A stretch of DNA of 64,000 nucleotides from Eledone cirrhosa. Taxonomy: Eukaryota. The stretch covers positions 38,750,001-38,814,000 of the forward strand of contig OZ024752.1 in NCBI GenBank assembly GCA_964016885.1, in the 5' to 3' direction. Positions within the stretch are counted from its first letter, which is position 1. Each line of letters begins with the position of its first letter. Positions 17,545 through 63,897 of this stretch are shown here, piece by piece. The notes beneath the pieces are model-generated. The model was not told the origin of the DNA and searched no databases. It saw only the letters and a list, made by a program, of their open reading frames with translations. The translations under genes and the position numbers were made by a program.

Positions 17545-17615
<71 letters not shown>

Positions 17616-17639
17616 AAATATATATATATATATATGTAA

Positions 17640-17687
<48 letters not shown>

Positions 17688-18081
17688 GTATATATATATA
17701 TAATTATATATATATATATATGGAGGCATATGGCTGGGATGAAGGCATATGGCTTAGTGGTTAGAACATTGGCCTTGCAATCGAAAGGTTGTGAGTTCAA
17801 TTGTGTTGTTTCCTTGAGCAAGACACTTTATTTCACATTGCTCCAGTTTACTCAGCTGTAGAAATGAGATGATAGGGACTGAGGTCCATATCATTTCACT
17901 GCAAAGTGGTCGTGGAGGTGCCACGGCAAAAAAGCACCCAGCACTCACTGTAAATGAGGTTGGTGTTAGGAAGGACATCCAGCTGTAGAAATCAAGCCAG
18001 AATCAGTTCCCGTCCCACCCTTGCAAGCAGGGAAAAGCGGACGTAAAATGAAATGATGATGATGATGATATATGTATATAT

Positions 18082-18118
<37 letters not shown>

Positions 18119-35262: not shown

Positions 35263-36544
35263 AATCAACGTTACAACATGTTTTTTTTTCATCCCCATCA
35301 GCTGTCGTCTGCTCTCATCAGGTTTAATAACGGTTTCTGATTTAGGCACAAGGTCAGCAATTTGGGGGGAGGGGAAGTCAATTAAATGGACTCCAGTACG
35401 TGACTGGTACTTTATTTTATCTCCCAAGTAAGGATGAAATGCAAAGTGTTCAGTGCTCAGGTGCACTACAACTCATCAAAGGTGCATGTATAGTACATAG
35501 AATAATTGTTTCTACTTTTGGCACAAGGCCAGCAATTATCTCAGTGCATTACTGGTACTTTATTTTATCGACCCCGTAAGGATGAAAGGCAAAGTTAACC
35601 TCCACGGGATTTGAACTCGGGATGTAAAGGGCCATAACTCTATGCTTTGCAGCATAGAGTTATGACCCTTTACGCTCTGGGTACATAGAATAATTGTTTC
35701 TACTTTTGGCACAAGGCCAGCAATTACTCAGTACATTACTGGTAATTTATTTTATCGACCCCGTAAGGATGAAAGGCAAAGTTAACCTCGGTGGGATTTG
35801 AACTTAGACCGTAAAGGGACGTAACTATGCTGGAAAGCATGGCGTCCGACTCTCTACTGATACTTCCAATCCACCGCCCTCTGGGTACATAGAATAATGT
35901 ACAAATGTCAGGAAAGTGAACAGTGTGTGAGTTATGATTTACACACAGATAAATGCATGCGTGTGTATGGAGGGGGAATATCAGGTGTAGTGTTGGTGAA
36001 TTTCGGGAAGCATGGAAGTTTTAATACCAATCCAGACTGTTTTAGACTGTTTGTACACAGGGCAGGATTTTGATGATGATGACAATGATGATCATGAAAT
36101 AAGACAATATCGGTCTGGTTAAGACAATCACTTCACAATCTAGTTCTTTCCTACTGTGTGGAATGTTAAGCAAATGTCTTCTACTAGAGACTAAAGCATC
36201 AAACAGATCAACAGCTTGCAAGATAAATTGACAGACAGAATCTGTACAAACCTGTTGCATGGGGTGAGGCGGGGGGAAAGCATATTTGTTTCTGTGTCTT
36301 CACTTTGTATTTGACACTGCTCAGGGGTAATATCTATTTATGTCCTACATAAATAGAACATCCTTCAACTCAGCAATTTGACGTACGAAATCAGTAGCTT
36401 ACTTTAAAAAAAAGACAAGTAAGAGTTGGCATCAGGTCGTAGCATACTACCGCAAAAACTCTCTTCCAACCCATACTAGCATAGAAAAGAAAATGGTTGT
36501 AATGAGATAAGCTCTGTCAGGTTTTTTTAAATGTTCTAGAAACA

Positions 36545-40992: not shown

Positions 40993-41029
40993 ATGAGTGG
41001 ACAAACGATTGGTGCTAGTGTTACCACCG
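40993..41029 (+). CDS. PDX1: PLP synthase, putative first coding exon ([12 protein letters not shown])
   Basis: ATG followed by 12 codons and a consensus G|GTAAGT donor in phase 1, as required by the exon at 53206. No homology support. Confidence 0.5.
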
Positions 41030-43752
41030 GTAAGTGTTATAAAATAGCTACCACTTTTATTTTTGGTGTTGAAAATAATGTGCCCAGCTAGTTTATGTTA
41101 TAAATAGCTTTACCTTATTACTTTTATATATTAGCAACCTTAGAAATTCTCACCATTCATTCACACAATGTTAAAATTATATATAAGAAGATAATATGTA
41201 TATTCCCGAATTTTGTCGGCGGGTAGGAGTAACCACCGTTAAAAAAAGGGTACTCAATACAATTGGTAGAGTATAAGCATCATTGTTAATATATATATAT
41301 ATATAGTCATGTAGAAGTCATTTCTATATATGATAAAGATATATTTTTTAAAATATGAAGATGTAATGTCTATATAATAAATATGACATAGTAATCTTTG
41401 AAACCCTGGTAAGATCGTGATTCAAACATGTATTTGTGCGATATTCCATTACTTCAATAGTCTTTAGTGGTGCCCTAACGTACAACGGATTATAGGAAAC
41501 ACAAATTACAAACACACCAATACCTACATATGTATAAAGATCAGCATGGAACCAACTAAGTACCCGCTACGTGGTCTCTCAGCTATTTAGAAAAAAGCAG
41601 CCGAATTCCTCTTAAACAATACCCTACCATTGTAAAAAAGAAAGGGTACAATTTGGATAATCGTCAGAAATTAAATTAAGGTGTTCATGATTGGAATACT
41701 TTGATCATAGGTCTACTCAATTGGGATCGATACGTTGCTAAATACTAACTAACATATCAAATTGCCGTCTGAACTGATCGAAAATATCAGATCGAAAAAG
41801 TATAATTGACTATATATCTTGTATTGAGTACTTTTTCTTGTAGTCGTTATAAACATACATACGTGTATGTATGTATGTGTACGTGTATATATATATGCAT
41901 GAACCTATGTACGTGTGTGTGTGTATGTACGTATGTGAGTATGCATGAACGTGCGTATGTATGCATGAACGTATGTGTGTATGTAAATATTATGAACGTG
42001 TGTGTTTATGTATGCATAAGCGTATGTGTGTGTATGTATGTATGCATGAACGTATGTATGTATGTATGTAAGCATGAACGTATGTATGTGTGTATTAATG
42101 TTCTTGGTGTGTGGTGAATAAAGCAAAAAGTTGCTAACATGTGCAGCTGCAGCAGTAATTTGATGCTCTCTGCAATAGGATTTAATTCGGTCTCTGCTAC
42201 GCTCAAATGAAGAACAACAAACTCAAACTATTCCTTCCAGCCCTAGATCTACTTAAACAACATTCAACTGTGCTACACAACTCGACATTCAACTTCTACT
42301 ATATTTCCCTTTTCGCTACACATTTTCCTAAATTTTTGTGTAGATCCACTTAGGCCCTGATTGATCAGACTGATTATCAAAACCGTTCCAGCCGCGACCT
42401 TCTCGTATTCGTTTCTTTTGGAAATTATTATGTATCCAGTACTATGTTATCAAAAGTAGTTTTAGATATCTTGTTTAAGACGATATGTGCGATTTAAGGG
42501 AAATTTGGCTGCTATTTCTAGCAGGTCGTACGATCACATAAGTGGTTTGTGCGTTGACTAAGTATCGAGGCTGCACTCCTAGCAGGCAATAAGCAATGTA
42601 CATTAATGCTTATGTAATCATAACTTCAACAGTTGTGACAAATAAAGAAATCTATCTATCTATTTATCTATCTGTCTGACTGTCTGTCTATCCTTCCATC
42701 TATATATCCATTCATCCATCTATATCTATCTATCTATATTCCACCTATCTATATATGTATGTATGTATGTATGTGTCTATCTACCTAGCGATGTATCCAT
42801 CTATATATATGTATCTATCTATCTATCTACCTAGCTATGTATCCATCTATATATATGTATCTATCTATCTATCTATCTATGTTTGTTTTTATATTTTTTA
42901 CACGACTGTATGTAAAATCCCCGGCATGTCTTTGTATTGTCCCCTTTCTTGTTGCGCCCTTGTGGCTAATAAAGAAATCTATCTATCTATCTATCTATCT
43001 ATCTATTTAGATGAGGGTTGCACATTTTTTTTCGGGGGTATGTGTTACCCATATAAACTGTCTCCCTCTATTGGGGAAAATCGACTAACTTTTTAAATTC
43101 CATTTGTGATAACATTTTACACGTTTTTATTGTATGTAAACTTCCCCCTTTGTATTTGTCCCCTTCTTTTGTGCCCCTGTGGCTAATAAAGAAATATATC
43201 TATTTATCTATCTATCCATCTATCATACATACAATTCATCTACATCTCTCTGCAGTGGGATGACTAATACTTGTCCAAACTATTGTATCAATCTCGCACC
43301 GATTTGCATTGCTAACGAGTGGGGTTTTTTGTTTGTTTTGTTTTTCTTTAAAGGAATGTAGCTTTGACAAACATCTATTAGGATTCTTGTCGACCTCACC
43401 CCTTCCTCCAAATTCCTCTGATATCGACCTTAAAGCCCTACACTAGTTTACACGCAACACATTTTCTTCGTTGGGGCTAATTTTACACTCAATTATAAGG
43501 GTGACGTTTATCACTAGTTGTATTTTATTTATAAATAAATTTGAATAATCTTTACGAGTCGGGGAGGGGCGGGGGAGTACAACTCCTTCAAAACAAATCA
43601 TGTTGCGTGTAATCTCTTAGCAAATTCCTAAGTCCCGTTTAATAATTGCACTGCCGATAAAATTATACATAGTTTCTAGTCTTTTGCTCTTTTCCTCTCA
43701 TTTATTATATTTATAGTCCTTTCTAATACTGCTTTCTTTTTTCTGTATGTTT

Positions 43753-43819
<67 letters not shown>

Positions 43820-44057
43820 TTAGAAAGTGAACGACACAATATATAATTACTCCATTACCAAAGGTTTCGGGACACTAGAGGGGTTATGAAATATATAACC
43901 CCTCTGCCTGATGAACGAACTAGACGTATGTTAGTCCTGAAACTAGGGTCCTGAAACCTTTAATAATGGAGTAGTTATATTGTGTTGTTCACTTAAATAG
44001 CTCTGTTTTAGACATAGAGCACTCTTTTCTCCTTTGCTTTTTCTTCGGAAATATTTA

Positions 44058-44127
<70 letters not shown>

Positions 44128-44366
44128 CGAAGGAAATGTGGTAAGGAACCAGGTGGACCATAACGTACCAAAGTACTCAATACTTAGGGTAGTAGAGTGG
44201 GTAATAGGAATGAGTAGGACCCCGGCGGCTGAGCTCAAACCGTTTCGACGGCTAATTATGGACTAGCCGTCGAAAACGGCTTGAGCTCAGCCGTCGGGGT
44301 CCTACTCGTTCCTATATATATATATATATATATATATATAGGAACGAGTAGGACCCCTACTATATA

Positions 44367-44423
<57 letters not shown>

Positions 44424-47400
44424 GCTTATATTCTGTATTCGATAAACTCTTTAAGGCTTAAAGAATGTTGGTTGACATTAAATTACAATGCTTTTTTTTT
44501 TATCGAATTTCGGGTTTAGTCCTCAGTTCACATCTGATTATATATATATATAGGTTCAATTGTTGTTTAGCCCCGAGTCAACCTTGCCTGAACAGACCTA
44601 TGATCAAAGACGTTTCAATCATATCCAAACACTGTCTTTTTAGGTATTGTGTATATAAGAGTAAATTATATAATGTGTTCATTTTTAAGACAGTAGTAGG
44701 CTATGATTTGAAGGAGATTTGGCCGCTGTTTCTAGCAGGTAGAGTAACCATGTAGAGCTTCTTTCGTTGGCTCGGTGTTGTTGTTTAATCCCAGGTCAGC
44801 TCTGAAGGAGTTGATCTATGATCAAAGTATTCCAACTATAACAATTCCGGGGCAGGGGGTTCCGCCCTGTATGTGAGGAATCCGGGTTCATGTTATCTAA
44901 GGTGGCCTTTTTTAAGACCGTAAAGTATGGTTTGATGGAGATTTGGCTGTTGCTTCTAGCAGATCGAGCGACTACGTATTTAGAGGGTCCTACGTTCGTT
45001 CGTGTTCCACAATCAGTAGATTTCTCGTTAGCTGAAGAGAAATATGATACTTTCTTAAATGTTACTGTTGGGATATTTCCACCCTTTTGTTCATAATCTG
45101 TATCAGTTTATCTGAAGCTAATGTTCCACGCAAACGTATTTACAAGGGTATGCTGAAAAGTTCATATGCTAACTATGAAGGAGTGATGCTAGAGCCGTAA
45201 AATTTTGCATGCTTTAATTTCAACTCTTATTAGTAACTGCATTGTTTCTTTCCAAGGACTATGTTGAAAAATAAACTTCATTTGGTCATTCCATGAGAGT
45301 ATCTTGGTCAGCCTATGAAATTTTCAGCCGGCCCTCATATAATAACTGCATTGTTTCTTTGTAGGGGCTATGTTGAAAAATAAACTTCATTTGGTCATTC
45401 CATGAGAGTATCTTGGTCAGCCTATGAAATTTTCAGCCGGCCCTCATATAATAACTGCATTGTTTCTTTGTAGGGGCTATGTTGAAAAATAAACTTCATT
45501 TGGTCATTCCATGAGAGTATCTTGGTCAGCCTATGAAATTTTCAGCCGAACCTCATATAATAACTGCATTGTTTCTTTGTAGGTGCTATGTTGAAAAATA
45601 AACTTCATTTGGTCATTCCATGAGAGTATCTTGGTCGGCCTATGAAATTTTCAGCCGGCCCTCATATAATAACTGCATTGTTTCTTTGAAGGGGCTATGT
45701 TGAAAAATAAACTTCATTTGGTCATTCCATGAGAGTATCTTGGTCAGCCTATGAAATTTTCAGCCGGCCCTCATATAATAACTGCATTGTTTCTTTGTAG
45801 GGGCTATGTTGAAAAATAAACTTCATTTGGTCATTCCATGAGAGTATCTTGGTCAGCCTATGAAATTTTCAGCCGGCCCTCATATAATAACTGCATTGTT
45901 TCTTTGTAGGGGCTATGTTGAAAAATAAACTTCATTTGGTCATTCCATGAGAGTATCTTGGTCAGCCTATGAAATTTTCAGCCGGCCCTCATATAATAAC
46001 TGCATTGTTTCTTTGTAGGCGCTATGTTGAAAAATAAACTTCATTTGGTCATTCCATGAGAGTATCTTGGTCAGCTTACGAACTTTTCAGCCGACCCTCG
46101 TATTTATTACTAGTTATTTCGTTCTCGACTGCAATTTCTTTTGGCAACCAACTTTGTTTTATGCCTTTGTAGTGTCTATCACTACACCTTCTTTACCAGC
46201 ATTACACGTGTTCATACATTTAAAATAATCCGCATTTAAATTAAGCCCATCAGAAGCTTCTTAACTAAATCCAGTCCACGCTGTCTCTTTTCTTTCATTC
46301 TTTCTTTTTTTTTTTTTAATGTTCTATATAACATTTTCTTGGGATGTAACCTTTGCCGGGTAATTTGCTTTTCATCATCACATTTTAATACTTCATAATT
46401 ACATGTTTTTTATCAAGCAATTTTTATTGTTACATTTATTTTCTCAAACAAAAAAGGCAGGCAAAAGGGGTGGACAAACGAATCGCTACCAGAGCAAAAG
46501 ATAACAATATCGCGAGGAGCACTGGTAAACCTCTCTAATAATTTTTTAGGCAAACCAGCACATCTTGCAGCGTTACCTCGGCTGATGGTGAGGCCGATGC
46601 TCTGGAACAACCAAGTGCCCTCACGAGTATTTTATCTTTGAACACCTATGTTTAAAATAAAAACAGATCCGTTCTATAGTATGGCTCGAATAAATTTATT
46701 TGTTTATTTTAACTGACAATATCTATGTTGATTTACAATAGTAAATTGATGTTTATAATAGTAAAAACGATTTAATAGAAAAAGAAAAAAAAAGTTTTTT
46801 TTAGATTGAGAAGAAAGAATGGAATGTAAAATAAGGATTTTCTTTTTTAAACGGATGGAAAAGGAAGGAGAAGGCAATGGCTCAAGTGTCATGGAAGAAT
46901 GGGGGAAGGGGGTGATTGCGCTCTAGGCCGCCTAGGGCACGACGGTATGGGGCTGTGCTCTGCGGACAAGACCGCAAAAGCATTTCCTAGTGCCTTCCAA
47001 TTAACGATATACAATGGAACACGTCTATTAATTGCTACAGACCATCAATAGAAAATATTGTCTCCTTCACTTAGAACTCTATATATTCTATGATACAACA
47101 AACTCGGGGTATTTGTCTGTAAATACTGGAGAAGGACAGTTTTATGGACCTTACAAAAACAAGGCAGTTTGTGAGGAAAATAGGTATTAAAACAAGAGGT
47201 GGTATATTTATTATAACTATCAAAAACAATGGCGTAATTAGAGTGTGTGTGGTTCGGTGCAACCTTTGAGTTTTCCGCCCCGTCACCGGGGCTGCCACAT
47301 ATTTGCATATATACAATAGACCCAAAAGTGTCGCCTGTTGTGGATCGCCCCTTCTCACCTTCTCAGCTACGCTTCTGATTAAAAATAAAAATAAAACGAA

Positions 47401-48915
47401 GAGTTTGATTCAAATAAAGTGAAAGTAAAGATGATTAGTAAGTAAAGTACTAAGAGAACGTTTAACTTATTATTAGTGTTAGAGAAATGCCTACGGTGAA
47501 TGTTAAGTAAAATATGCAGGGCCGCCATATAAACTAGGTTAATCATCAAATAGGACGATAAGAGATATAGTGGAATAACAGACTAACTTGAGAATGAGAC
47601 ATTAAATTTACCACCTCGGCGTTTTGATGTGAAGAGTTCAATAGATCACGTTCTGTTATCTAGTTGACCCTGATAGCAGATATCCTAAGAAGTGTCAATG
47701 ACATATTCTGTCCCGTACGAGCCCCCCCCCCCCCTCCGCGCTGAAAAGTTAATAAGCTGACCAAGGTACTTTCATGGAATGACTAAATGAGGGTTTATTT
47801 TACAACATAGTCGCTGGAAAGATCGATAAAATAAAGTTAAAGTACCAAGGTCAGTTTGATTGACTAACCCCACCCCCAGCTTTCTGGCCTTGTGCCTTAG
47901 CCCTTTAGTTACCAAACTGACACAAACCGGCTCTGGTTCTATGAAATAAAGTCAACCATTTGAAAGGGTTCAAATTTAAATTAAAATCTTCCAACACAAT
48001 TTCTTATAAGAACTTTACATTAACCCTTTAGCATTTAAACTGGCCGTATCTGGCCAGAATCTCTCGCTTCTTTCTGTTCAAACTGGCCGTAACTGGTTGC
48101 TTATACTGATGTTAAGGTATTGTTCTCAAAATAAATATTATCAAAATCTCATAGATTCGATAGTATGTGAGGTAAAGTCTTAACCACAAAAATACAATAG
48201 TAAATATAGAATAATGTAAATGCTAAAGGGTTAAGTTATTATCTTAGTAATGAAATAATTAATAATTTTAGTAAATCCCTCAAAATTCTTTATTAATTAA
48301 TTAAAATAGAGTGTATTTTATGAAAGGGTTAAATGTATATTACAATTTTTCAATCTACTTTTGCATATTTAAAAAAGCTTTAGTCAATTTTATTTTAATA
48401 TTCTGTTTCTTCTAGAAATTCCAAATTGACAGTTAGGAGGAAAGTAATCCTTAGCAATTAGTCAATTTAAACTGCTGTTAAATATGGTAAGGTTTTAAAA
48501 TAGCATTAAGATATTTCATTTTCTCACGTTTAGCAAACATCTCCCTTGCTAAATGTGAGAAACTGACAGGATTGGACATTTTATGGCAAAAAATAACACA
48601 ACAAGGTCGAGAAATATGGTAGAAAAACTTTTTTTTAAAAGATGATAATTGCTGTACCATGTTTCTCTAATAAGTTCACATTTACTTTTAAATACTCAAA
48701 TACTTATATAAATTATCAGAACAATTTTACAGGCAAAAAACCAACAGGCAGGAGACCCAGGGGGTAGATCCTGAGCAAAATGGTTGGATAACATCCATGA
48801 ATTCGACTGGTCTCACTTGGGATCCAACCAGATCAATTGAAGGCAGCTGCTTCTGGCAGGACCCACTGGAAGGCATGTTTGGGGATTCTGCTCCCACAAC
48901 TCCCACGACTCTCAC

Positions 48916-48963
<48 letters not shown>

Positions 48964-51900
48964 TGTCGTTGGAACAATGGCCCTATTTATGAAATATAAA
49001 GTGGTTGTTTTTTTGTTGTGAGTCAGTTAGATATAGGTAGAGTGAAGCTGATATGATATGGAAATGTTTCTGATCTTAAAGCAAAATATGACACTTGCTA
49101 GACTTTGACTGAAAATGTTAAACCTTTAACCTCTGAGATAAACACAGTTAATTTATAATGTTATTTTTAACAATAACTGACATAAAAAAAAAAGATGATA
49201 GAAACCTAATATTGTTGTAATTGTAAACTAGTTTAGCTTCATAAATATGATGTTGGTATTGTATTAGCTTCATAAATATGATGTTGGTATTGTATTAGCT
49301 TCATAAATATGATGTTGGTATTGTATTAAAAAGGTTGTCATTCAGTGAGTACAAAGTAGATAAAATAAACAATTTCTTGATTGATCTCTAAAACAGAAGT
49401 TCTCAAATTTTTTGGGCCACCCTCTCCCCTCTCACGGCCACATAATACCCTCAGCCATTACCCCGAATTACTGGTACTTTATTTTATCGGCCCTGTAAGG
49501 ATGAAAGGCAATGTCAACCTTGATGGATTTGAACTCAGACTGTAAAGGGGCATAACTCTATGCTGCAAAGCATGGTGTCTGACCCTCTACCGATACTACC
49601 AATTTGATAGTTAATATACTATTATATCATCTCTGTTGCCCCCACAGCCCCATTAGGCTGCAGCACCCCCCTGGACCTTCTCAACGCCCCTTGGGGGGGC
49701 GGTAGCGCCCACTTTGAGAACCTTTGCTCTAAACCAGTGATTCTCAACGTGGTCCAGGTGGACCACCGGTGGTCCACATAGCATTTCTAGTGGTCCACAG
49801 AGAATTCGTAGCCATAAAAAAATTGTAGCCATTTCACAAAAATGTAACTAATATAATATTTTGTTTAATTACACACATGTCCATTATATTTGAAAATTTC
49901 GAGTTCACAGCTCTGATACTATGGGCATGAGGTTAGAATGTCTCTAGCAGTTCTATTACAAAAGATTTAAAAGTTTAGGTGGCCCACAGGAAAAAATTAC
50001 TTATTTTGGTGGTCCACAGCGAAAAAAAGGTTGAGAACCCCTGCTCTAAACCATAGCATTATATATGTATTCTATTGATGAGAACATGATCAGTATGTTT
50101 ACAGAAATGATTGAGGATATTTTTGTTAAATTTATATCTCAGTTTGTTGTTGATTGCTCCAGCCCAAATCCCTTGATTAAAATATGATGTTAATACTTTT
50201 CTGTTAGCTTTTAACAGTATTACTAAATTAGATTGGCTTTAATTGACTATCAACGCTACTCTTGTGGGACCTATTTGTTCAGGTTAGCAGTTTAACCCTT
50301 TAACATTTAAACTGGCCGTATCTGGCCAGAATTCTCTCACCTCTTTCTATACAAACCCTCTGTAACTGGTTGCTCATACTTAAGGTATTGATCTCAAAAT
50401 AAATAATATCAAAATCTCATAGATTCGATATTATGTTAGATAATTATGTGAAAATACAATAGTAAATATAGAATAATGTAAATGTTAAAAGGTTAACCTT
50501 TTTTTTTCATATCAAACCACTCCTGTTTGTTTTAAAGTGTTTACATTTATCTAAAACCTCTCATCACATCATCATTTTATATAAGATCCTTTCTTAATGT
50601 TCCAAACACCAGCATAATTATTTTGATACAAAACCGCTTGGAACTTCCCCTGTTTCTATGATACAAAGCTGTTAGCTTAAGTTAACAACTTCAATGAAGG
50701 TGTTTTGACTATGAAGGATAAAATAGATGGACAGATTTTATGGGCGAAACCAACAGATAGGAGACTCAGGGGTAGAACCCGAGCAAGATGATTGGATAAC
50801 ATACATGAGCTTAGATGGTCACGCTTGTGGATCCAGTTGAATCAGTTGAAGACGATTGCTTCTGACAGGACCTGCTGGAGGGAGTGTTTGAGGGCTCTGC
50901 CCCCACGACGCTCTCAGGAATAAATGGGCGAAGAAAAGAAGAAATGATAAATCCAATATGATTTTAGATGGGTTTGTATTACAAGGGTTAAATTAGGAGA
51001 CCTTTAAAATGGATGTTTTGTTTGTATGTTGTTGTTGTTGTTTTTTTACATAGAACTAGAGCCAGTTTTGGCCAGGTTGGTATCAAAGGGGAAGTTTTCT
51101 CTCTGGAACTTTCTCTCTGCAGGCTAAATTCAACTAAAACACTGCAAGTCAATAAAACACTCCTTCATTTTTAAAGTGTCATTGCTGTAAAAGTTGAATG
51201 TCTTTATTGCCTACACAATACAGCAATTTTTTAGTAGTAGGATACAAAGTCTTAAATATTTTTACTAGTTTTCTAGTATCCTATTAGTAGCTTCTGTGAA
51301 GCTCCTTCAATGCTGTAGTTAACATTTGTAATAAACTCTTCACTGTCTTAACCTTTTCGTTATATTTCTAATGAAAGACACTGTCCATGTTTCAAATAAT
51401 TTTGAAAATAGCCAAGAATTTAGATGGATTTAGGAAGATACCTAATTTTCTCATTATTAAACTCATTTTTGGAACATAACTTAACAAAGGCTCTTACATA
51501 AAATCAATGCGATACTCCAGCATGGCCAAAGTCCAATGAGTGAAACTAGTAAAAGAATAAAAGAACATAAACAGAATATGTGCATCTCCCAAAATGTGAA
51601 GCCATTGCTGCTTACCTCACTTGGGATTAACTAGGTGCCATTTAATACCAGTCCCTAACAATTCTATCATCTCTCCTCTCTCTCTCCCCTTCCTCATCTC
51701 TCTCCCCATCACTGTCATCCCCTCTCTCACCTACCTCTCCTTCCCCCTTTTTCTCTCTGTCTCTCCCATCCCCTTCCTCCTCTCTTCCTGCCCTTCACTA
51801 TCTCCCCCTTTTCTCTTTGTCTTCCCACACACCCTCCTCTCCCTGACATTTATGACACCCCCCCACCCCCCCACTGATGAGAACAAAATGTTTTCTGCTA

Positions 51901-54900
51901 ACATTCTTTTTTTTATTATTCATTTTTATTATTATCATTATTATTTTTTTAGTATTTGACAGCTGGAGTTGACATAAGTAATTCTATCATTTGCTGAATA
52001 GTGAAATAATTTTCTGTGTCATAAACTAGTCTCATTAAAATACTGCCACCCCCAACTCTAATATTTAATACAATTAAAAAAATTAAAAGAATTTGTAATA
52101 AAATAGTTTATAAACATAGTGCCCCAGCATGGCCTCAGTCTGCCCGGCTGAATCACGGAATAGTATAATCTTCTCTATTTCAGTCCACCAGGGATGTGGA
52201 GTGGCACCTGAAACCCCATTTGCTCATAATAGTGAGAGATGGGGGGGCGGGGGCAGTGGGAGTTTGGTTCCTCTGTGTTTGGACCTGGTGCACGTGTGTT
52301 GTCTGTAATCTTAGGATTGTGAACAAAAGGTGTCTTTCAACATTTGTTGAAGAAGCTTGAAAAGGTTACAAGTTGAAACTGGTTGAATAAACTAATATAC
52401 TACAAATATGTATAGTTCCTAAGACCCTTTTCAAATTTGAAACAAAACTTTGTTTCATATGACCAAAGTTGGTTTCATAACAAAAGAGTTAGCCTTTTAG
52501 CATTTAACCCTTTAATATATAATGAAATTATTGTGTACAGTGCTCAGGTGCACTACAACTCATCAAAGGTGCATGTATAGTACATAGAATAATGTACAAA
52601 TGTCAGGAAAATGAACAGTGTATGAGTCATGATATAATAATAATAATAATAATAATGAAATATTGTGTACAGTGCCCAGGTGCACCACAACTCATCAAAA
52701 AGTGCATGTACAGTACATAGGGCAATGCAAAAACATCAGGAAAATGAACAGTGCACGAGTCATGATACACACAAGTGTGCATGTGTATGGAAGGGGTACG
52801 TTCAAACCGACCAGAATTCTCTACCTCTTTCTGTTGAAAATGGCTGTAACTGGTCACTCAAACTGATGTTAAGGTATTATGTGAGGTAAAGCCTTTACCA
52901 TGAAAATATAATAGTAAATATAGAGTAATGTGAATGCTAAAGGGTTAAACCGGCTGTTTCCAGCCAGAATTCTTTCACCTCCTCCTGCTCAATCCAGCTG
53001 TAACTGGCCACTCATACTGATGTTAAGGTATTGTTCTCAAAATAAATAATATCAAAATCTCATAGATTCTGTGAAAACACAATAGTAAATATAGAGTAAT
53101 GTAAATTCTAAAGGGTTACAGGGTTAATATATTTTTTGTAAACCCTTTGAGTTCAATAAAGAAAATATTATGATTATTATTATAATTGTTTGCTTTTATT
53201 TCTAGATCCTGATGTAGTTGTTACCAATTTAACAGCTGTCAAGGATGAAAGTGCAGGAAGGAAAACTGGTGAGGTTTTACATTTTAATTCTCTTTTAACT
53301 CTTTAGCATTTAAACCAAACTTATCCGGCCAGAATTCTTTCACCTCTTTCTGTTCAAACCGGCTGTGACTGGCTGCTCATTCAGATGTTAAGGTATTGTT
53401 CTCAACATAAATAACATCAAAATCTCATAGATTCGATATTATATGAGATAATTATGTTAGATAAAACCTTTACCATGAAAATATAATAGTATATATAGAG
53501 TAATGTAAATGCTAAAGGGTTAATGTACAAATTCATAAAACTAGGTTTTAATGTACAGCTTCATAAAACTAGATTTTAATGTACAACTTAATAAAACTAG
53601 GTTTTAATGTACAACTTCATAAAACACTAGGTTTTAATGTGCAACTTCATAAAATTACGTTTTAATGTACAACTTCATAAAACTGTAGGTTGGTTTGTTT
53701 GTTAGTTGTTGGGGGGGGGGGGTTGTTGTTTTTTTTACATAATCTGTTCACAGCTCAAACAGTCTGTCATATTTTATTATTTTTTTATCATTTTTACAAG
53801 GTGTTATAGGAGTTGAGTGATGAAATTGTTCACCTACTGAACTTAAAGCTACTGTTCGCACTTCAAACCATGGCTACTAGCAGTTTGAATAAGATACATT
53901 GCCATTACTCTCATGTCTCAAATAATCACCCACCCCATACTGCTTATTAATTTTTGAGATTTTTTTTCCAATCCCCACCTCACCCCCTCACCCACCCCAT
54001 TGCTTTATTAAATTTTGCTAATCTATCTCCAGCAGAATTTTATTTTAAGTGGTAGTGTTCTTACTGCAATCAATTTTTTTTTATACATTAAAAATCATTA
54101 TACATGACAAAAAAAAGAATATTACAAAAAATCCCATACATTATAAAATAAATAGCATGGGTTGGGATCTCAATATATAAACTAAATGACTAATTCTGCT
54201 TGTTTTTGTTTTTTTAAATCAAGGGAGACAACCTAGAAAAATTATCGACTCCCCACCTCCTCCCCTATTATTTGGGACCCAAGAGTACTCAACTTGTATC
54301 AATCAGAAAAAAAAATTTAAATAGAATGGATTTTTTTTCTTTTTAATATAAACCAATAACTTTTTGCTTATATTAAAATAAGATTTTTTTAAATTCTTTT
54401 TTATTTTAGTCACTATCTTAAAATACCCTATGAATAAAAAGGATAAAGACTCCCTTCGGTCAAGAATGACCATACGATTTGCAACTAGAAAGTTTCTCTT
54501 CCGAGACAGAAGTCCAGGCAAAGTGTTTATGTGGAAGTCTAGCAGTTACCCATGTATACCAGTCTCCCCTCTCCACACCACTGATATTGTCCAAGGGAAA
54601 GGCAATGGCCAATACAGCTTGGCACCAGTGACGTCGCAACTCATTTCTACAGCTGAGTAAACTGGAGCAATGTGAAAATAAAGTGTCTGGCTCAACAACA
54701 CAATGCATCGCCTGGTCCAGGAATCGAACTCACAACCTCATGATTGTGGACCCTATGCTCTAACCACTAAGCCACACGCATTCACGCCATATGAGTACAG
54801 ACATGTTCTTTAATCTTCAGCATGCTGTCAGCGACAATAGAGTAATCTCCTTTTTATACATAAAACAGTATCAAGGGGGGCAATTCATAAAAAATTTCAG

Positions 54901-57900
54901 CGTGCTGAAGGTTAAACAATAGGTCCAAAGTTTAGAGCTGTATTTAGCCAATCTCTGCAATATGAAACAGAAATTGATATATAATAGATACAAAACTTCA
55001 TTCAGATGTCAAGACTATGAAATAATTATTTGTGAGGCAACTGATGAAATAGTTGCCTTAACCCTTTAGCATTAACATTACTCTATATATACTATTAGAT
55101 TTTCACGGTAAAGGCTTTATGTTACATTATATCGAATCTATGACATTTTGATATTATTTATTTAGAGAACAATACCTTAACATAAGTACAAGCAGCTGGT
55201 TACAGTCTGTTTGAATAGAAAGAGGTGAGGGAATTCTGGCCAGATAAATATGGTAGATCACTATTAATCTTAATAGATTTTTGTCTTTCTCCCCATAACA
55301 GTAAATAAACTAGATGTTGTTGTTATTAGGGACCTTCAAGGTCAAAGCTGGTATGGCACAAATGGCTAAAGGAGGAATCATTATGGATGTTACCAATGCA
55401 GGTGAAGCACGTATTGCTGAAGAAGCTGGAGTGAGTCTTTTTTTTTTCTTAATAATTGTTTCTACTTTTGGCACAAGGCCAGCAAATACCCAGTGCATTA
55501 CTGGTACTTTATTTTATCGACCCCGTAAAGTTAACCTCGGCGGAGTTTGAACTCAGAATGGCAAGGGCCGTAACTCAATGCGTCAAAGCCTGGCGTCCGA
55601 CCCTCTCCCGGTACTGCCACAATCCACCGCCCTTTTTCTTAATAATAACAGTTTCTGATTAAGGCAAAAGGCCAACAATTTTGTGGGGAGGGGAAAATCG
55701 ATTAAATTGACCCCAATGCATTACTGGTACTTTATTTTATCGACCTCTGTAATGATGAAAGGCTAAGATAACCTTGAGGGGATTTGAAGTCAGAACATAA
55801 AGGGATCGGGGTTGGATTTGTCAGGGAGTGGAGAGGGGGGGTGTTAAATGTTGATACACTGGAGTTAATTTAATATCTTATTCCAACCAATATAATTCAT
55901 GGGAGAAGAAAATCAGATTCCTGCAATGTAGGTAGAGCAGGTGTTAGATTAGTGACTTAGCTTGCTGAAAGGTAACCACAAATCTGGGATAAGAAATTCA
56001 TGCCATTTCTAACTAAACCCTAGAATTTCGACAGGGTCAGTTAGTTTATTTTTTATATCATAAATTTTTTTTTATTACACAGGCTTGTGCTGTAATGGCT
56101 CTTGAAAGAGTGCCAGCTGATATTCGCCTCCAAGGAGGTGTAGCCAGGATGACTGATCCTTTAGTAAGTAGCCTAATATCTTTAATTTGCTTAACATTGT
56201 ACTCTGTTACGTGTTCCAGCTGACTGGCTGTGGCCATGCTGAGGCACCACCATCATAATTGAATATTTTTCTTCTTTCTTTTGCTTTCTGGGGTTCTTCA
56301 AAATATTAACTAAGTCCTACTTTTAGTAATAAATAATTGTTTCTACTTTAGGCACAAGGCCAGCAATTACCCAGTGCATTACTGGTACTTTATTTTATCG
56401 ACCCCGTAAGGATGAAAGGCAAAGTCAACCTCGGCGGGATTTGAACTCAGATCGTAAAGGGACGTAACTATGCTGGAAAGCATGGCGTCCGACCCTCTAC
56501 CGATACTGCCAATCCACTTTTAGTAATAAATAATGTGTTGATTTATGATGGCAGATCTGTCAACTCTCCCCATCCGACAAGGAGATCTCCCACTTGCTTT
56601 GGGGTGGATGAGGGATGTCTTCTCTTGTGAAAATGAGTATAGCTTTCGTTATGTAAAATCTCCCCATTTTGGGGCATTTTTTTCATGTTATTCCCTGTTT
56701 GGGTTTTTAGAGGTTGGTAGGTAGATCTGTGATGGAGAGAGTGAATGTTTCCATGCACATGTAAAGTGGCCATTTAAAAAGATTCTTACATTTGTAAGAA
56801 TCTTTGTTTCTTTTTCGTAGAATTTAATTTTAAAATATTAATAGTTATCGCCACATAACTGATTTCAGAAACATTAGAAAGCCGATACAAATTAATGTTA
56901 CTGAGTTTTTTTTACTGAAATGAAATATTTTTTCCTTTGAAGAAAATTAAAGAAATCATGAATGCTGTTACAATACCAGTCATGGCTAAAACCCGTATCG
57001 GTCATTTTGCTGAAGCTCAGATCTTGGAAGCTTTGGGAGTGGACATGATCGATGAATCTGAAGGTAAATAAATCTCATTTTTTTCCATTTCTTAAGAGGG
57101 TTCTAAACCCCACTATCAAGCTAAAATTTCTTTACTCAAAAATATGGCAAATGCTTCTATTTTCTATTTCAAACTCGCTCGCTGTTTCAAAACAAACTTA
57201 TTTGTAAATATACAAGTGTTTAATTATAGGTTTTAGTCCTTATTCAGTGGAACCTCTATTCACGAATGCCTCTCATCATGAATAAATCGGTTCATAAACA
57301 ATTTTTCCGAACATAAAAATTCTCAGGTGACGAATAGTGTCTCGAGTAATGAACACGCAAGCCGGCAACAAGGGTTGGCAACAAGCTGGGAATATTGGCA
57401 GGAAAGTGTCACTTTCTGTGTAGTTAGGTACTATAGTGATATCTATGTCTTTCACACACACACACAGAGTCTCTCTCTCGCTGAATTTCCTTTGGGAAAA
57501 ATAGTCTCGATTTACAAACATTTTGGGTGACAAACAGCCTTCAGGAACAAATTAAGTTCCTGAACCAAGCTCCCATTGTATTTGATAACTTGTTTTTCTG
57601 TTTCTCTGATTAGAACCAGAATATTCTCAAACAAAGGGTTTTATTTCAACATGATTTATGTTGATCCAGGCCGAAACAAATGAGATCGTGTAGGTGTCAC
57701 GACAAAAAAACACACAGTCCACGCTGTAATGTGGCCGTGTAGGCAACACGGTAAAAACCTCCCAGCCCCACACTGTAAATGTGGTTGGTGTTAGGAAGGG
57801 CATCCAGCTGTAGAAAACCCGCCAGACAGTCCTATGCGAGCAAGACAATCACTCTTGCCTCAAGTAGGAAAACCCCCGTCCAAACCCATGCAAGCGTGGA

Positions 57901-58426
57901 ACACGGACGTTAAACGTTGATGATGATGATGATTCAAATATTAGCCAACCTCCTCTATTTTATATCTAAGAAATAGGTAAATATCCAAATGCCATTTATA
58001 AGCCAAGGCAGCTAATCAATACATTGTTTAGATGGCATATATAAGTTGAACACTCCATTTTACTATTGATTTTTTAGCCTATATTCAAGTATAAAATAAA
58101 GTACCAGTAATACACTGGGGGCGATTTAATCGACTCTTCCCTCCCCCAAAAATTGCTGGCCTTTTGTCTATAGTACAAACCATTGTGGATTGGCAATTTC
58201 TGTAGAGAGTCGGACGCCATGCTTTGCACGCATCGATTTATGGCCCTTTATGTTCTGAGTTCAAATCCCGCTAAGGTTAGTTTTGCCTTTCGTCCTTATG
58301 GGGGTCAATAAAATAAAGTACCAGTAATGCACTGGGATAATTGCTGCGATTCTGTCACAACACGTAAAGAGAGAGGAGTAGTTTGACTACCTCATACTAC
58401 TCCTCTCTCTTTACATCAGCTGCCTG

Positions 58427-58474
<48 letters not shown>

Positions 58475-60984
58475 GAAGGAAGGGAATGGTTAAAAAAACT
58501 GCTCTGTGTGTTTATGTAGATGTGTTCTAGTGCTCAACAAGAACATCAGTAACAACTTCTTTTGAATTATTCCATTCTAGTTCTCACTGCTGCTGACATT
58601 GACAACCATATTGACAAACACAAGTTTAAAGTTCCTGTTGTTTGTGGAGCACGTGACCTTGGGGAAGCTCTGCGTAGGATTTCTGAAGGTGCTGCCATGA
58701 TAAGGACGAAAGGAGAAGCTGGAACAGGTATAGTAGCTTTTAATATATTCAGTTTTGTTTGTAATATATATATGGATGGAAACCATATATATATATATAG
58801 TCGATGGAAACCGCGGAGTGGGGAGACCCAAGATGACCTGGGATGAGGTGATAAAAGCCGACCTTACCCAATTACACCTCTCAAAGGCGATGATACACGA
58901 CCGTGACCTCTGGCGTCACGCAGTAATACAGAGTACCCGACCTCCCATGGGTACAAGCTGAAGCATATAGACAATATGCCCCCCACACCCCCCACTGTAA
59001 GGTGGTCGTGGAGGTCACGGCAAAAAAGCACCCAGCCCACACTGTAAAGTGGACATGTAGGCGCCACGAAAAAGCACCCAGCACTCCCTGTAAATGAGGT
59101 TGGTGTTAGGAAGGGCATCCAGCTGTAGAAATCAAGCCAAATCAGTTCCTGTATGAGCAAGGCATGGTCAGCTGACCAGACACTGCCCACAACAGGACCA
59201 CCCATCTAACCCATGCTAGCGTGGAAGAACGGACGTAAAACGGTGATGATGATGATGATGATGATGATATATCTGTAATAGTACAAAACCAAATAGAAGT
59301 TTATCTTTTATTTCAAGAAATGAGAGGGGTGGGGATTATGAGTCAGTGGAGTGTCAGACAAATATTTCAAATTCCACCGTGATCTTTGTTATCTTTCATC
59401 CTTAAAATAAAATAAAGTACCAGTTATATACTGTGGAGCGGTATAATTGACTTTCCCCTTCCCCAAAATTGCTGGCCTTGTGCCAACATTAGAAAGAAAT
59501 ACTATATACATATATATACTTGAATATGATTGCAAATACAAATGGCCAAAATGGGGTTCCTCCTGGAAGGAGGGTTTGAGGACCCTGACCCCACGACCTC
59601 TCAGGAATAACTGGGAGGACAAGAACTCACCATCCAAGAGAAGCATTTTTTATCATGTTTATTTTTAAATGTTTTCCTTCGTTTTTTTTTTTTTTTCTTT
59701 CTTTGCAGGTGATGTCTCCCAAGCTGTACGACATGCTCGTACTATCAATCGTGAAATTAGAATTGCTCAAGCTATGGATTCAACAGAACTCTATGAGTAT
59801 GCTAAAAAACTACAAGTTCCAATAGAACTTTTGCGGAAAACTGCTGAGATGGGTCGACTTCCAGTAGTAAATTTTGCTGCTGGTGGTATTGGTAAGCCTA
59901 GCATTTGCTTTACATAAACCCCTGTGCTATATTATTCCTCGTTAGGATCAGCTCCAATTATGTATAGTTCTATTATAGAAACATAGACATCATCATTGGC
60001 AGTATCGGTAGAGGGTCGGACGCCATGCTTTGACGCATAGAGTTACGGGCCTTGCCATTCTGAGTTCAAATCCCGCCGAGGTTAACTTTACTTTTCATCC
60101 TTACGGGGTCGATAAAATAAAGTACCAGTAATGCACTGGGTAATTGCTGGCCTTGTGCCTAACGTAGAAACAATTATTTAATTTACTTTTCATCCTTACG
60201 GGGTCGATAAAATAAAGTACCAGTAATGCACTGGGTAATTGCTGGCCTTGTGCCTAACGTAGAAACAATTATTTAATTTACTTTTCATCCTTACGGGGTC
60301 GATAAAATAAAGTACCAGTAATGCACTGGGTAATTGCTGGCCTTGTGCCTAACGTAGAAACAATTATTTAATTTACTTTTCATCCTTACGGGGTCGATAA
60401 AATAAAGTACCAGTAATGCACTGGGTAATTGCTGGCCTTGTGCCTAACGTAGAAACAATTATTTAATTTACTTTTCATCCTTACGGGGTCGATAAAATAA
60501 AGTACCAGTAATGTATTGAGTAAATGCTGGCCTTGTGCCTAAAGTAGAAACAATTATTTAATTTACCATAGCAATGGATTGACAGTATCAGTAGAGGGTC
60601 GGACGCCATGCTTTGCAGTATGGAATTACAGTCCTTTATGGTCTGAGTTCAAATCCCGCCAAGGTTAACTCTGCCTTTCATCCTTACGGGGTCGTTAAAA
60701 TAAAGTACCAGTAATGCACTGAGGTAACGGCTGGCTTTGTGCCAAAAATAGAAACAATTATTTAATTTCCATTTTCCATGCTTGCACGGGTTAGGTGGGC
60801 TCTCACGTTATAAGACAAGGTGGGACCGGAGACAATGTCTTGTGTACACGGAGAATTCAGACTACTACTACTACTTCTACTAAATTCATCCACTTCTTTG
60901 TGGTGACATGATAAAACCTTTCCATCTCACACAATCTAACATTAACAGCCTCAGTTCTTCATCGGGCAATTCTGTATCTTCCTC

Positions 60985-61019
<35 letters not shown>

Positions 61020-63897
61020 CCGTTTTACGTCCGTTCTTCCGCGCTAGCATGGGTTAGACGGGTTGTCCTGTTGTGGGCAGTGTCTGGTCGGCTGACCATC
61101 CCTTGCTCATACAGGAACTGATTTGGCTTGAATTCTACAGCTGGATGCCCTTCCTAACACCAACCTCATTTACAGTGAGTGCTGGGTGCTTTTTCGTGGC
61201 GCCTACACGTCCACTTTACAGTGTGGGCTGGGTGCTTTTTTGCCGTGTCACCTCCACGACCACCTTGCGGTGGGGGGTGTGGGGGCATATTGTCTATATG
61301 CCTCAATGACACTCTTTAATGTCTTTGGAGGTCTTCTGTGTTTGCATTTCACATTAGTGGGCTCCCATAGTAAAGGTTTTGTAGCAGGTTTGTTGTCTCT
61401 CATGACATGACCTACAAGTAGAAGACATCTGCCATGGATGGTATAGCAGGAGGTTGCCGTAGAGAATTTTGTTTGTAACAGTCAAAAGGAATCAAACTAA
61501 ACATGTTTAATTACTTTTATCTGCTTCATCACTTTTTTATAGTCACTTTCTCCCTGCTAAATGTAACAGTCAAACCTCCTCAATTAATAATATATAATAA
61601 TGAAATTATTGTGTACAGTGCTCAGGTGCACTACAACTCATCAAAGGTGCATGTATAGTACATAGAATAATGTACAAATGTCAGGAAAATGAACAGTGTA
61701 TGAGTCATGATATAATAATAATAATAATAATAATAATGAAATATTGTGTACAGTGCCCAGGTGCACCACAACTCATCAAAAAGTGCATGTACAGTACATA
61801 GGGCAATGCACAAACATCAGTAAAATGAACAGTGCACGAGTCATGATACACACATGTGTGCATGTGTATGGAAGGGGTACATCAGGTGTAGCCTTGGCAT
61901 ATTTCGGGAAGCATGAGTGTCTTAAAGGATGCAGTGTCTCGGCAGCAAACATCTTACTCCCTTTAACATAATCCATATACTTTTCAATTTCCAAATTTTA
62001 ACAGGCCTCCTACAATATAAGGTATTTTAGCAACTAGGGAGTTATTAAAATATTATATTTGCATATCTAAAGTACTTGAACTATGAAGGTTTTAAGCATT
62101 TGTTTTGGCTACCTCGGTGTTAAAGGTTATTAGTTCAAGTAGAATTAATCCAAGTGACACAAAAATAAGAACACTTTACCTATGACTTGGTTGTCACCTC
62201 TACCCCACTCACACATTTTATGTTGTCTATCATATTATCATGTAGTTAATTAACCAAAGCAACATAAAATTAAGAACACTTCACCTATTACTTAGTTGTC
62301 CCCTCCCCCACACCTTTTATTTTAATTATTATGTTATCATGTAGAGTTAACCAATATATCACTTAGTTGTCACCCCCACCCCACACTCATACCTTTTATC
62401 ATGCTATCTCCTCATACTGTAAAGTGGTCATGTAGGTGTCACGACAAAAAGCACCCAGTCCACACTGTAAAGTGGTCATGTAGGTGTCACAAAAAAAAGA
62501 AGCACTCAGTCCACACTGCAATGTGGTCGTGTAGGTGTCAGGACAAAAAGCGCCCAGTCCACACTGCAATATGGTCGTGTAGGTGTCGGGACAAAAAGCA
62601 CCCAGTCCACACTGCAATGTGGTCGTGTAGGTGTCAGGACAAAAAGCGCCCAGTCCATACTGTAATGTGGTCATGTAGGTGTCGGGACAAAAAGCACCCA
62701 GTCCACACTGTAAAGTGGTCATGTAGGTGTCACGACAAAAAGCACCCAGTCCACACTGTAAAGTGGTCATGTAGGTGTCAGGACAAAAAGCACCCAGTCC
62801 ACACTGTAAAGTGGTCATGTAGGTGTCAGGACAAAAAGCACCCAGTCCACACTGCAATGTGGTCGTGTAGGTGTCAGGACAAAAAGCGCCCAGTCCATAC
62901 TGTAATGTGGTCATGTAGGTGTCGGGACAAAAAGCACCCAGTCCACACTGTAAAGTGATCGTGTAGGTGTCACAAAAAAAAAGCACTCAGTCCACACTGC
63001 AATGTGGTCGTGTAGGTGTCAGGACAAAAAGCGCCCAGTCCACACTGCAATGTGGTTGTGTAGGTGTCGGGACAAAAAGCACCCAGTCCACACTGTAAAG
63101 TGGTCATGTAGGTGTCACGACAAAAAGCACCCAGTCCACACTGTAAAGTGGTCATGTAGGTGTCACGACAAAAAGCACCCAGTCCACACTGTAAAGTGGT
63201 CATGTAGGTGTCACGACAAAAAGCACCCAGTCCACACTGTAAAGTGGTCATGTAGGTGTCACGACAAAAAGCACCCAGTCCATACTGTAATGTGGTCTTG
63301 TAAGTGTCACAACAAAAAGCACCCAGTCCACACTGTAATGTGGTCATGTAGCCAACATGATAAAAAGTACCCAGCTCACACTATAAATGTGATTGGCATT
63401 CAGCTGTAGAAACCAAGCCAAAATCAGTTCTGTGTCAGCAAATCAGGGTCCCCTGACCTGATCCCTCACAAAGGGACATCCTGTCCTACCCATGCTAGAG
63501 TGGAAGATGGATGTTAAATGATGATGGTGGTGATGAGCTCTGATATGTTAGTGAAACCAATGAACCTAGCTAAAACTATACTTTCTTTATTTCAGCTACT
63601 CCAGCTGATGTGTCTCTGTTGATGCAGCTCGGTGTTGACGGAGTGTTTGTAGGCTCTGGTATCTTCAAAAGTAGTTTACCGAAGAAACGTGCTAAAGCAA
63701 TGGCACAAGCTGTGACCCACTACAATGAACCTTCAGTCCTTGCTGAATTGAGTGAGGATTTGGGTGAAGCTATGTTTGGAATCCCACATTCTGATCAACC
63801 ACAACATAAAAGACGCGAAGGACCAATAGGAGAGGAAGTGAAGATTTGGAATGCCACTCTAAGCAATCAAAATTCTTCAACTAAAATAAGCAGCTGA
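40993..63897 (+). CDS. PDX1: Pyridoxal 5'-phosphate synthase, synthase subunit (PDX1/SNZ/PdxS family); join(40993..41029,53206..53268,55330..55430,56083..56163,56943..57063,58581..58727,59709..59891,63596..63897), about 344 aa
   Basis: Exons total 1035 nt in frame. Family motifs: [113 protein letters not shown]. This is the vitamin B6 enzyme, not the Pdx1 homeobox gene. The first exon is tentative. Confidence 0.93.
44126..44314. mobile_element. Hairpin-plus-tail element in (TA)n, copy 3 (inverted)
   Basis: Reverse orientation of the same family. Confidence 0.7.
45141..46102. mobile_element. Mariner-like MITE with its 3' 109 bp amplified 8 times
   Basis: TA-CAAGGGTATGCTGAAAAGTTC ... GAACTTTTCAGCCGACCCTCG-TA termini; 109-bp period from about 45232. 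Confidence 0.85.
49394..49726. mobile_element. hAT (Charlie/Buster-like) MITE 1 containing a SINE B insertion
   Basis: CAGAAGTTCTCAAA...TTTGAGAACCTTTG termini; flanks CTCTAAAA and CTCTAAAC. Confidence 0.75.
49735..50043. mobile_element. hAT (Charlie/Buster-like) MITE 2
   Basis: CAGTGATTCTCAAC...GTTGAGAACCCCTG termini with a perfect 8-bp TSD CTCTAAAC. Confidence 0.85.
52518..52800 (-). mobile_element. Dimeric LINE-like 3' tail fragment with (ATT)n
   Basis: Near-identical to 61595-61880; a related monomer lies at 35450-36020, split by SINEs. Confidence 0.6.
53206..53268 (+). CDS. PDX1: PLP synthase exon 2
   Basis: ttctag|(D)[20 protein letters not shown](G)|gtgagg; splicing gives [15 protein letters not shown], resembling PdxS N-termini. 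Confidence 0.75.
53520..53685. repeat. About 28-bp tandem repeat (TTAATGTACAACTTCATAAAACTAGGTT), about 6 copies
   Basis: Direct inspection. Confidence 0.85.
53906..54287. mobile_element. Old MITE with imperfect 21-bp TIRs
   Basis: TACTCTCATGTCTCAAATAAT versus reverse complement TACTCTTGGGTCCCAAATAAT. Confidence 0.5.
54515..54790 (-). mobile_element. tRNA-derived SINE with a family A head and a different tail
   Basis: Reverse-complement A/B boxes and CORE-like body followed by unrelated 3' sequence. Confidence 0.7.
55330..55430 (+). CDS. PDX1: PLP synthase exon 3
   Basis: [33 protein letters not shown]|gtgagt. Confidence 0.94.
56083..56163 (+). CDS. PDX1: PLP synthase exon 4
   Basis: cag|[27 protein letters not shown]|gtaagt. 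Confidence 0.94.
56943..57063 (+). CDS. PDX1: PLP synthase exon 5
   Basis: aag|[40 protein letters not shown]|gtaaat. Confidence 0.94.
57245..57578. mobile_element. Old pogo/Tigger-like MITE
   Basis: CAGTGGAACCTC left end and degenerate ..AAGCTCCCATTG-TA right end. Confidence 0.55.
57663..57932 (+). mobile_element. RTE LINE 3' UTR fragment
   Basis: Near-identical to about 2581-2890, with a (GAT)n tail. Confidence 0.88.
58581..58727 (+). CDS. PDX1: PLP synthase exon 6
   Basis: tag|[48 protein letters not shown]|gtatag. Confidence 0.94.
58797..59267 (+). mobile_element. RTE LINE 3' fragment with a modular 3' UTR
   Basis: [22 protein letters not shown]...[12 protein letters not shown] end, hairpin modules and a (GAT)n tail. 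Confidence 0.88.
59709..59891 (+). CDS. PDX1: PLP synthase exon 7
   Basis: cag|[16 protein letters not shown]...[13 protein letters not shown]|gtaagc. Confidence 0.94.
59996..60561 (+). mobile_element. SINE family B with its 95-bp 3' half repeated 5 times
   Basis: Units start at 60087, 60182, 60277, 60372 and 60467. Confidence 0.9.
60987..61305 (-). mobile_element. RTE LINE 3' UTR fragment, inverted relative to 58960-59267
   Basis: Reverse-complement match including the (ATC)n tail. Confidence 0.88.
62410..63534 (+). repeat. 48-bp module array (about 20 copies) ending in an RTE-type tail, just upstream of the last PDX1 exon
   Basis: Same unit as 29633-30770, then CAGCTGTAGAAACCAAGCC...CCCATGCTAGAGTGGAAGATGGATGTTAAATGATGATG. 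Confidence 0.92.
63596..63897 (+). CDS. PDX1: PLP synthase exon 8 (terminal)
   Basis: ttcag|[25 protein letters not shown]...STKISS-TGA. Confidence 0.93.

Follow-up and report, generated by a model that had tools for sequence, protein, structure and literature searches.

The DXP-independent de novo synthesis of vitamin B6 involves two subunits, Pdx1 (PdxS, SNZ) and Pdx2 (PdxT, SNO): Pdx2 acts on glutamine to set ammonia free, which Pdx1 uses in a condensation with ribose 5-phosphate and glyceraldehyde 3-phosphate (PMC11237949). In Arabidopsis Pdx1.3, according to PMC8827014, Lys98 binds the pentose, Asp41 is the proposed acid catalyst, and Lys166 is needed for I320; the phosphate-site motifs LGEAxRRI and GTG are named in PMC11237949 and PMC8313854. 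Animals, some sponges excepted, are regarded as unable to make vitamin B6 in one review (PMC7954711), and most of them as lacking the enzymes of its synthesis in another (PMC6071262). Here, a window of 64,000 nucleotides from the octopod Eledone cirrhosa (contig OZ024752.1 of the assembly GCA_964016885.1) is considered. Judging by its sequence, it very probably harbors an intact, spliced, single-copy nuclear PDX1 gene, whose product likely forms vitamin B6 de novo together with a PDX2 encoded on another contig (C22).

PDX1, its PDX2 partner and their predicted function

The joined exons of PDX1 (Table 1) comprise 1035 nt coding for 344 amino acids followed by TGA, and all seven introns, 652–12176 nt in size, are of the GT-AG type; the first-pass annotation of this window, which described eight GT-AG exons and a frame of about 344 residues, was accurate in this respect. 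The catalytic residues D53 (in MDV), K110 (VMAK), and K178 (IRTKG) are in place, along with both phosphate-site motifs, LGEALRRI and GEAGTG. Both a six-frame motif search and a Pfam search of the genome located the exons at the positions given in the first pass. Five of the exons pass the Pfam SOR_SNZ cut-off, while the placement of exons 1, 2, and 8 is based on gap-free colinearity with the Octopus bimaculoides protein. The latter is identical to the window protein at 319 of 344 positions, without gaps and colinear throughout; for the O. vulgaris/sinensis protein, the count is 321 of 344. No other SOR_SNZ locus was found in the 3.0-Gb assembly (five candidates, all five scored). The first AATAAA lies 152 nt 3' of the stop codon, just beyond the window end.

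Besides the five window exons, the family assignment draws on scores measured on orthologues: the PDX1 orthologue P0001 (93% identical) passes PRK04180 and TIGR00343, reaching 472 bits against an NCBIfam equivalog cut-off for PdxS of 395, and the PDX2 orthologue P0121 passes the corresponding PdxT cut-off (167.8 vs. 105.6 bits). The alignment of P0001 with PDB 2nv2_A, the Bacillus subtilis enzyme, is ungapped with an offset of 29, converting D53, K110, and K178 into D24, K81, and K149, i.e., the very equivalence proposed in the first-pass annotation. In the alignment to 5LNT, K178 falls on the K166R site, and by motif, spacing, and PDB-chain alignment, the three residues correspond to D41, K98, and K166 of the Arabidopsis enzyme as described in PMC8827014. 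The full-length alignment to solved structures (E ~1e-124) suggests a (beta/alpha)8 barrel assembled as a hexamer or dodecamer.

As noted in the first pass, the window itself contains no PDX2. In the genome, the Pfam SNO search matched two of four candidates, both on contig C22, so that PDX1 and PDX2 reside on different contigs in this octopod. The C22 gene keeps the GGES motif and an intact Cys-His-Glu triad (Cys96, His205, and Glu207) and is 90% identical to the O. sinensis PDX2 over 214 columns. Further PDX2 matches came from cephalopods, a scallop, anthozoans, choanoflagellates, Owenia, and Tigriopus, and one coral-like and one copepod-like contig have a donor coinciding in position with that of the PDX2 intron.

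Both genes are transcribed and spliced, as documented by intron-free contigs of each from one run (X4) of one study. The PDX1 contig (1308 nt) carries exons 3, 4, 5, 6, and 7 end to end at consecutive coordinates with no intron letters between them; therefore, it is regarded as an intron-free transcript. It extends 200 nt upstream and 475 nt downstream of the matched exons: by arithmetic only, the former would fit exons 1–2 plus a leader of 100 nt, and the latter exon 8 with an end ~20 nt past the first AATAAA. The PDX2 contig (1386 nt) joins both PDX2 exons and has 101 extra letters at its 5' end that stem from an exon lying upstream; the true N-terminus of PDX2 may therefore be longer. For the gene at G000:C22:31085594-31089983, this contig thus implies an upstream exon of ~101 nt. 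None of the runs is recorded as RNA, and no splice evidence was found in runs X1 and X2, where the contigs cross exon–intron borders and appear DNA-like.

The residues of both proteins are observed; from them, we infer the enzyme activity. By analogy with the solved family members, PDX2 would hydrolyze glutamine with the participation of Cys96, His205, and Glu207 and hand the ammonia over to PDX1, where Lys110 would bind ribose 5-phosphate and Asp53 would help its dehydration. Lys178 would then make the I320 cross-link, and glyceraldehyde 3-phosphate would complete pyridoxal 5'-phosphate (PLP).

Certain observations weigh against this assignment of function. Val is constant at residue 305 in the rows of sponges, annelids, copepods, and tunicates, and molluscs and cnidarians have Phe, Ser, or Leu there; because of this replacement, the assembly or regulation of PDX1 may differ. 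Activity or complementation results were found for no mollusc PDX1 enzyme, and the library type of run X4 is without record, its contigs giving neither tissue nor expression level. One might then suppose that PDX1 is retained without PLP synthesis in vivo, as a scaffold or pseudoenzyme like the plant PDX1.2, and that B6 comes from the diet; the altered C-terminal residues, the added tails, and the lack of linkage between PDX1 and PDX2 in the octopod genome would be in line with this. This supposition is quite improbable, considering that all three catalytic residues are retained, that P0001 scores higher against the active PDX1.3 (419 bits) than against PDX1.2 (313 bits), and that the glutaminase partner is intact and spliced. 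The conjecture of the first-pass annotation that this animal may make its own vitamin B6 is strengthened by the intact and spliced pair of genes: the octopod likely does so.

Distribution among animals and shared introns

Among the best 120 matches to exon 8, all 29 rows with a species name are animals (20 molluscs, 4 cnidarians, 2 annelids, and 3 sponges). With the annelid Owenia as the query, named copepods and tunicates, more annelids, and Amphimedon were obtained in addition. In total, annotated PDX1 is present in six animal groups, i.e., molluscs, cnidarians, annelids, copepods, tunicates, and sponges. A 980-aa Batillaria model (P0025) has PDX1 joined to a PF13837 domain and is probably a gene-model fusion. 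The nearest prokaryotic genes, among the best 80 of 557, are mostly from Chloroflexota and show at most 75% identity.

The intron positions were compared in 26 metagenome contigs picked by a pattern with the donor at intron 5, which was excluded from the sharing count, being selected for by the search pattern. Twenty-four of them, all with an intron-bearing PDX1, were kept; the other two were set aside before counting, L115 as a chance match and L118 as bacterial-like. By best match, from which their taxa were guessed, the contigs resemble corals, bivalves, an annelid, tunicates, copepods, and possibly sponges, and several of the coral-like and tunicate-like ones are near-copies; the contigs do not count as independent. 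A position identical in codon and phase to that in the window was recorded for intron 3 in all 18 contigs that could be tested, for intron 4 in 16 of 21, for intron 6 in 13 of 13, and for intron 7 in 9 of 11. Clearly, the gene structure of PDX1 is common to several phyla. Three coral-like genes (L095, L097, and L119) display an apparent GC donor at intron 2, which has GT in the window.

In the main PDX1 tree (54 proteins, 274 core columns), the window protein is placed among cephalopods (support 100/99), and the animal PDX1s stand apart from the closest bacterial genes with a support of 86/79 (95/77 in a tree built without five columns, see below). These trees have two weak points: named fungal, plant, or choanoflagellate sequences are absent from them, and the values uniting all animals in a single clade fall short of the starred threshold. 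The idea that PDX1 was recently captured from a bacterial, fungal, or algal source, in the manner of cyst nematodes, or is a contaminant deserves practically no credence. The Chloroflexota relatives do reach 75% identity. Still, the gene sits on a 50.4-Mb contig and nests among cephalopods, the named exon 8 matches are all animal, and the repeats of its introns are those of the host, recurring left of position 40900, inside the span of the neighboring NOSIP-like gene, and in the PDX2 intron (blastn). The first-pass annotation had regarded PDX1 as a host nuclear gene due to SINEs common to its introns and NOSIP; the host status is supported, and the shared repeats may be SINEs. Moreover, a recent microbial origin is contradicted and excluded by the introns common to coral-, bivalve-, annelid-, tunicate-, and copepod-like contigs.

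Since the intron positions are shared, PDX1, as far as gene structure can tell, is present in animals since early in their history. Taken together with the orthologues annotated across six groups, this makes it an old animal gene, neither new nor microbial and already annotated in related octopuses; orthologues are routinely annotated across molluscs, which by the reasoning of the first-pass annotation removes the novelty but not the gene. The suggestion of ancestral retention made there is supported as regards retention within animals; simple descent along the species tree, considered in the next section, does not appear to fit.

Many marine invertebrates probably make vitamin B6 themselves. 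The B6 auxotrophy of vertebrates and insects looks like a loss, because the two-gene pathway is intact in the octopod and PDX1 is annotated in six animal groups. The B6 supply in molluscs and corals should not, by default, be ascribed to symbionts or feed. PDX1 and PDX2 are small enzymes and easy to test. A literature search covering few of the subscription journals returned no paper on a mollusc PDX1 or a mollusc–cnidarian PDX1 tree; the available part of PMC10192322 contains nothing on host B6 genes, and its supplements may bear on annelids.

Grouping of mollusc and cnidarian genes

In the main tree, 14 mollusc and 6 cnidarian PDX1 rows form one clade (100/99), with annelids, tunicates, copepods, and sponges outside. 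The approximately unbiased test rejected vertical species-tree orthology of PDX1 in the form of both a mollusc+annelid (p-AU 0.0034) and an all-Bilateria (p-AU 0.0062) constraint; the constraint groups are those of the species tree but were picked after the first tree was seen. Sampling is the weakest point here: named brachiopod, nemertean, flatworm, echinoderm, placozoan, and ctenophore sequences are absent from the set, and many of its rows are nameless. Rows shorter than 270 or longer than 420 aa were excluded from the first tree and the comparison of diagnostic sites, fusion proteins being added to the first tree only. These PDX2-PDX1 fusions of 530–620 aa (P0193, P0202, P0210, P0214, P0218, P0220, P0222, P0228, and P0240, one of them named from Prymnesium parvum) served only as an outgroup.

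Five core sites split molluscs and cnidarians from other animals; by an equal rule, no site unites molluscs and annelids against cnidarians and sponges. The clade remains (98/92) in a tree of 38 rows without these five columns, with the topology (sponges, ((annelids, tunicates, copepods) 94/91, (molluscs, cnidarians) 98/92)). The core identity between molluscs and cnidarians (81.7%) is near that within cnidarians (83.7%) and above that between molluscs and annelids (77.9%). Another feature common to molluscs and cnidarians, the N-terminal motif V[ST]NL behind a phase-1 intron, is located outside the columns of the tree; none was seen in the annelid, sponge, copepod, and tunicate rows. The acceptor of this intron precedes the motif by 14 nt in the window and in three contigs of coral-like type, and by 8 nt in two of bivalve-like type. 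In the PDX2 tree, molluscs, cnidarians, and three unnamed rows come together (95/90), and the mollusc+Owenia constraint, with one named annelid, was not rejected (p-AU 0.28).

Because mollusc PDX1 groups with that of cnidarians, purely vertical inheritance matching the species tree does not appear to fit it. The phylogeny suggested in the first-pass annotation sets the gene among cephalopods and apart from bacteria and joins molluscs with cnidarians, not annelids.

Divergent, head-to-head PDX1 and PDX2 genes are found in 5 of the 24 animal-like contigs (L094, L099, L103, L105, and L107; one coral-like and four copepod-like, one match being weak), most of the remaining contigs holding little upstream DNA in which such linkage could be seen. 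Owing to this arrangement, the pair was probably linked early in animal history and later separated in this octopod. On balance, the most likely reason for the grouping is an early duplication of the linked pair followed by reciprocal loss (hidden paralogy), after which molluscs would have kept the same PDX1 sub-type as cnidarians. One event on the linked pair would explain the groupings of both PDX1 and PDX2, and no unusual process is needed; the vitamin B6 pathway is often lost. Against hidden paralogy stand the about five losses required, the failure of the exon 8 and Owenia searches to reveal a species with both sub-types, and the single PDX1 copy in the octopod genome.

The same data are compatible with another, less likely scenario, in which the head-to-head pair, introns included, passed from an early cnidarian to the stem of molluscs and displaced the bilaterian copy. 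It would take one transfer and one loss, and the five-column-removed tree reproduces the species tree except for the position of molluscs. The rejected constraints, the near-cnidarian identity of the mollusc proteins, the concordant PDX2 grouping, and the lack of any sampled genome with both types are in its favor, and the divergent neighbors mean that one event could move both genes. At the same time, molluscs do not nest stably inside Cnidaria: they are sister to hexacorals in the first tree, reciprocally separate from cnidarians in the site-comparison tree, and without a settled position in the main and the five-column-removed trees. The PDX2 constraint was not rejected, and several phyla are absent by name from the set. 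Gene transfers between animals are rare. If it did happen, this would be an ancient animal-to-animal move of a whole biosynthetic pathway, retained in chitons, snails, bivalves, and cephalopods; either way, the mollusc–cnidarian grouping offers a clean case for weighing hidden paralogy against such a transfer.

Less probable still is that the grouping is an artefact or convergence and that PDX1 descended vertically. The protein is short and highly conserved, the deep tree is unstable (copepods are outside annelids and tunicates in the main tree and with both in the five-column-removed one), the PDX2 test was not significant, and the post hoc choice of the constraint groups points the same way. 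However, the clade survives removal of the diagnostic sites, the branches are short, the composition is similar, the equal rule returned zero sites against five, and the V[ST]NL motif with its preceding intron lies outside the tree columns. Hidden paralogy remains the preferred explanation.

Genomic surroundings and known counterparts

The features of the window and the PDX2 gene are collected in Table 1. The label of the NOSIP-like gene is supported by a single exon with a zf-NOSIP match that stays under the curated cut-off (E 2.4e-4) and by motifs known for NOSIP. The Rtf2 family search of the genome gave no match at this gene; Rtf2-family exons were found at another site, G000:C18:30562850-30566408.

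Table 1. Coordinates of the genes discussed (window positions unless a genome contig is given)
Feature	Position	Strand	Remarks
PDX1 coding exon 1	40993..41029	+	Start codon, residues 1–12, phase-1 donor; colinear with the O. bimaculoides N-terminus
PDX1 exon 2	53206..53268	+	VTNL motif common to molluscs and cnidarians; acceptor AG 14 nt upstream of motif
PDX1 exon 3	55330..55430	+	N-terminal helix, catalytic Asp53 (MDV); Pfam match; on spliced X4 contig
PDX1 exon 4	56083..56163	+	ERVP...GGVARM; Pfam match; on spliced X4 contig
PDX1 exon 5	56943..57063	+	Catalytic Lys110 (VMAK); Pfam match; on spliced X4 contig
PDX1 exon 6	58581..58727	+	LGEALRRI phosphate-site motif, catalytic Lys178 (IRTKG); Pfam match; on spliced X4 contig
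PDX1 exon 7	59709..59891	+	Pfam match; on spliced X4 contig
PDX1 exon 8 to stop	63596..63897	+	GVFVGSG, mollusc-type C-terminal tail; colinear with the O. bimaculoides protein
NOSIP-like gene	~14800-33001	minus	Start codon at 33001; transcribed divergently relative to PDX1, the two start codons being 8 kb apart
NOSIP-like exons	near 33000, 31000, 28800, 21800, 20560, 14870	minus	
PDX2 exons	G000:C22:31085594-31085941 and 31089645-31089983		Two-exon frame of at least 228 aa

The introns of PDX1 contain several repeats. In intron 1, a 109-bp unit is repeated about eight times in tandem (~45230-46100), with related sequence near 10200 and 20300. Tandemly expanded pieces of interspersed repeats, with a unit of ~117 bp and an array of ~40-bp units, occupy ~60090-60560 and 62410-63400 in intron 7. 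A repeat of ~270 bp is present in two near-identical copies, at 52533-52800 (intron 1) and 61600-61880 (intron 7), with relatives near 35400-35800.

The closest counterparts are the proteins named “Pyridoxal 5'-phosphate synthase subunit SNZERR” of O. bimaculoides (XP_052824270.1) and O. sinensis (XP_029636357.1), both of 344 aa and colinear with the window PDX1; they are automatically annotated predictions for which a functional test was not found. The SNZ/SNO of the sponge Suberites domuncula (Seack et al. 2001, cited in PMC7954711) represents an animal PDX1 that is 71% identical to that of the window. The sponge protein has neither the V[ST]NL extension nor the five mollusc–cnidarian residues. 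Reportedly, its SNZ and SNO genes form a head-to-head pair, in contrast to the octopod genes on different contigs.

With respect to the canonical Pdx1/Pdx2 (PdxS/PdxT; PF01680 and PF01174; PDB 2NV2, 5LNR, 2ZBT, 3FEM, and 4ADS), all catalytic residues and motifs align, but the octopod PDX1 has longer N- and C-terminal tails and Phe305 in place of Val; of the 32 solved sequences matched, none is recognizably animal by name. The statement of the first-pass annotation that nematodes lack B6 synthesis does not hold uniformly: horizontally acquired SNZ/SNO of Heterodera glycines, a cyst nematode of soybean (Craig et al. 2008), are cited in the reference list and a table of PMC5664098. In that case, too, an animal genome contains genes for making B6 de novo; yet they were acquired horizontally, whereas the octopod PDX1 is of the animal lineage and has introns at positions common to several phyla.

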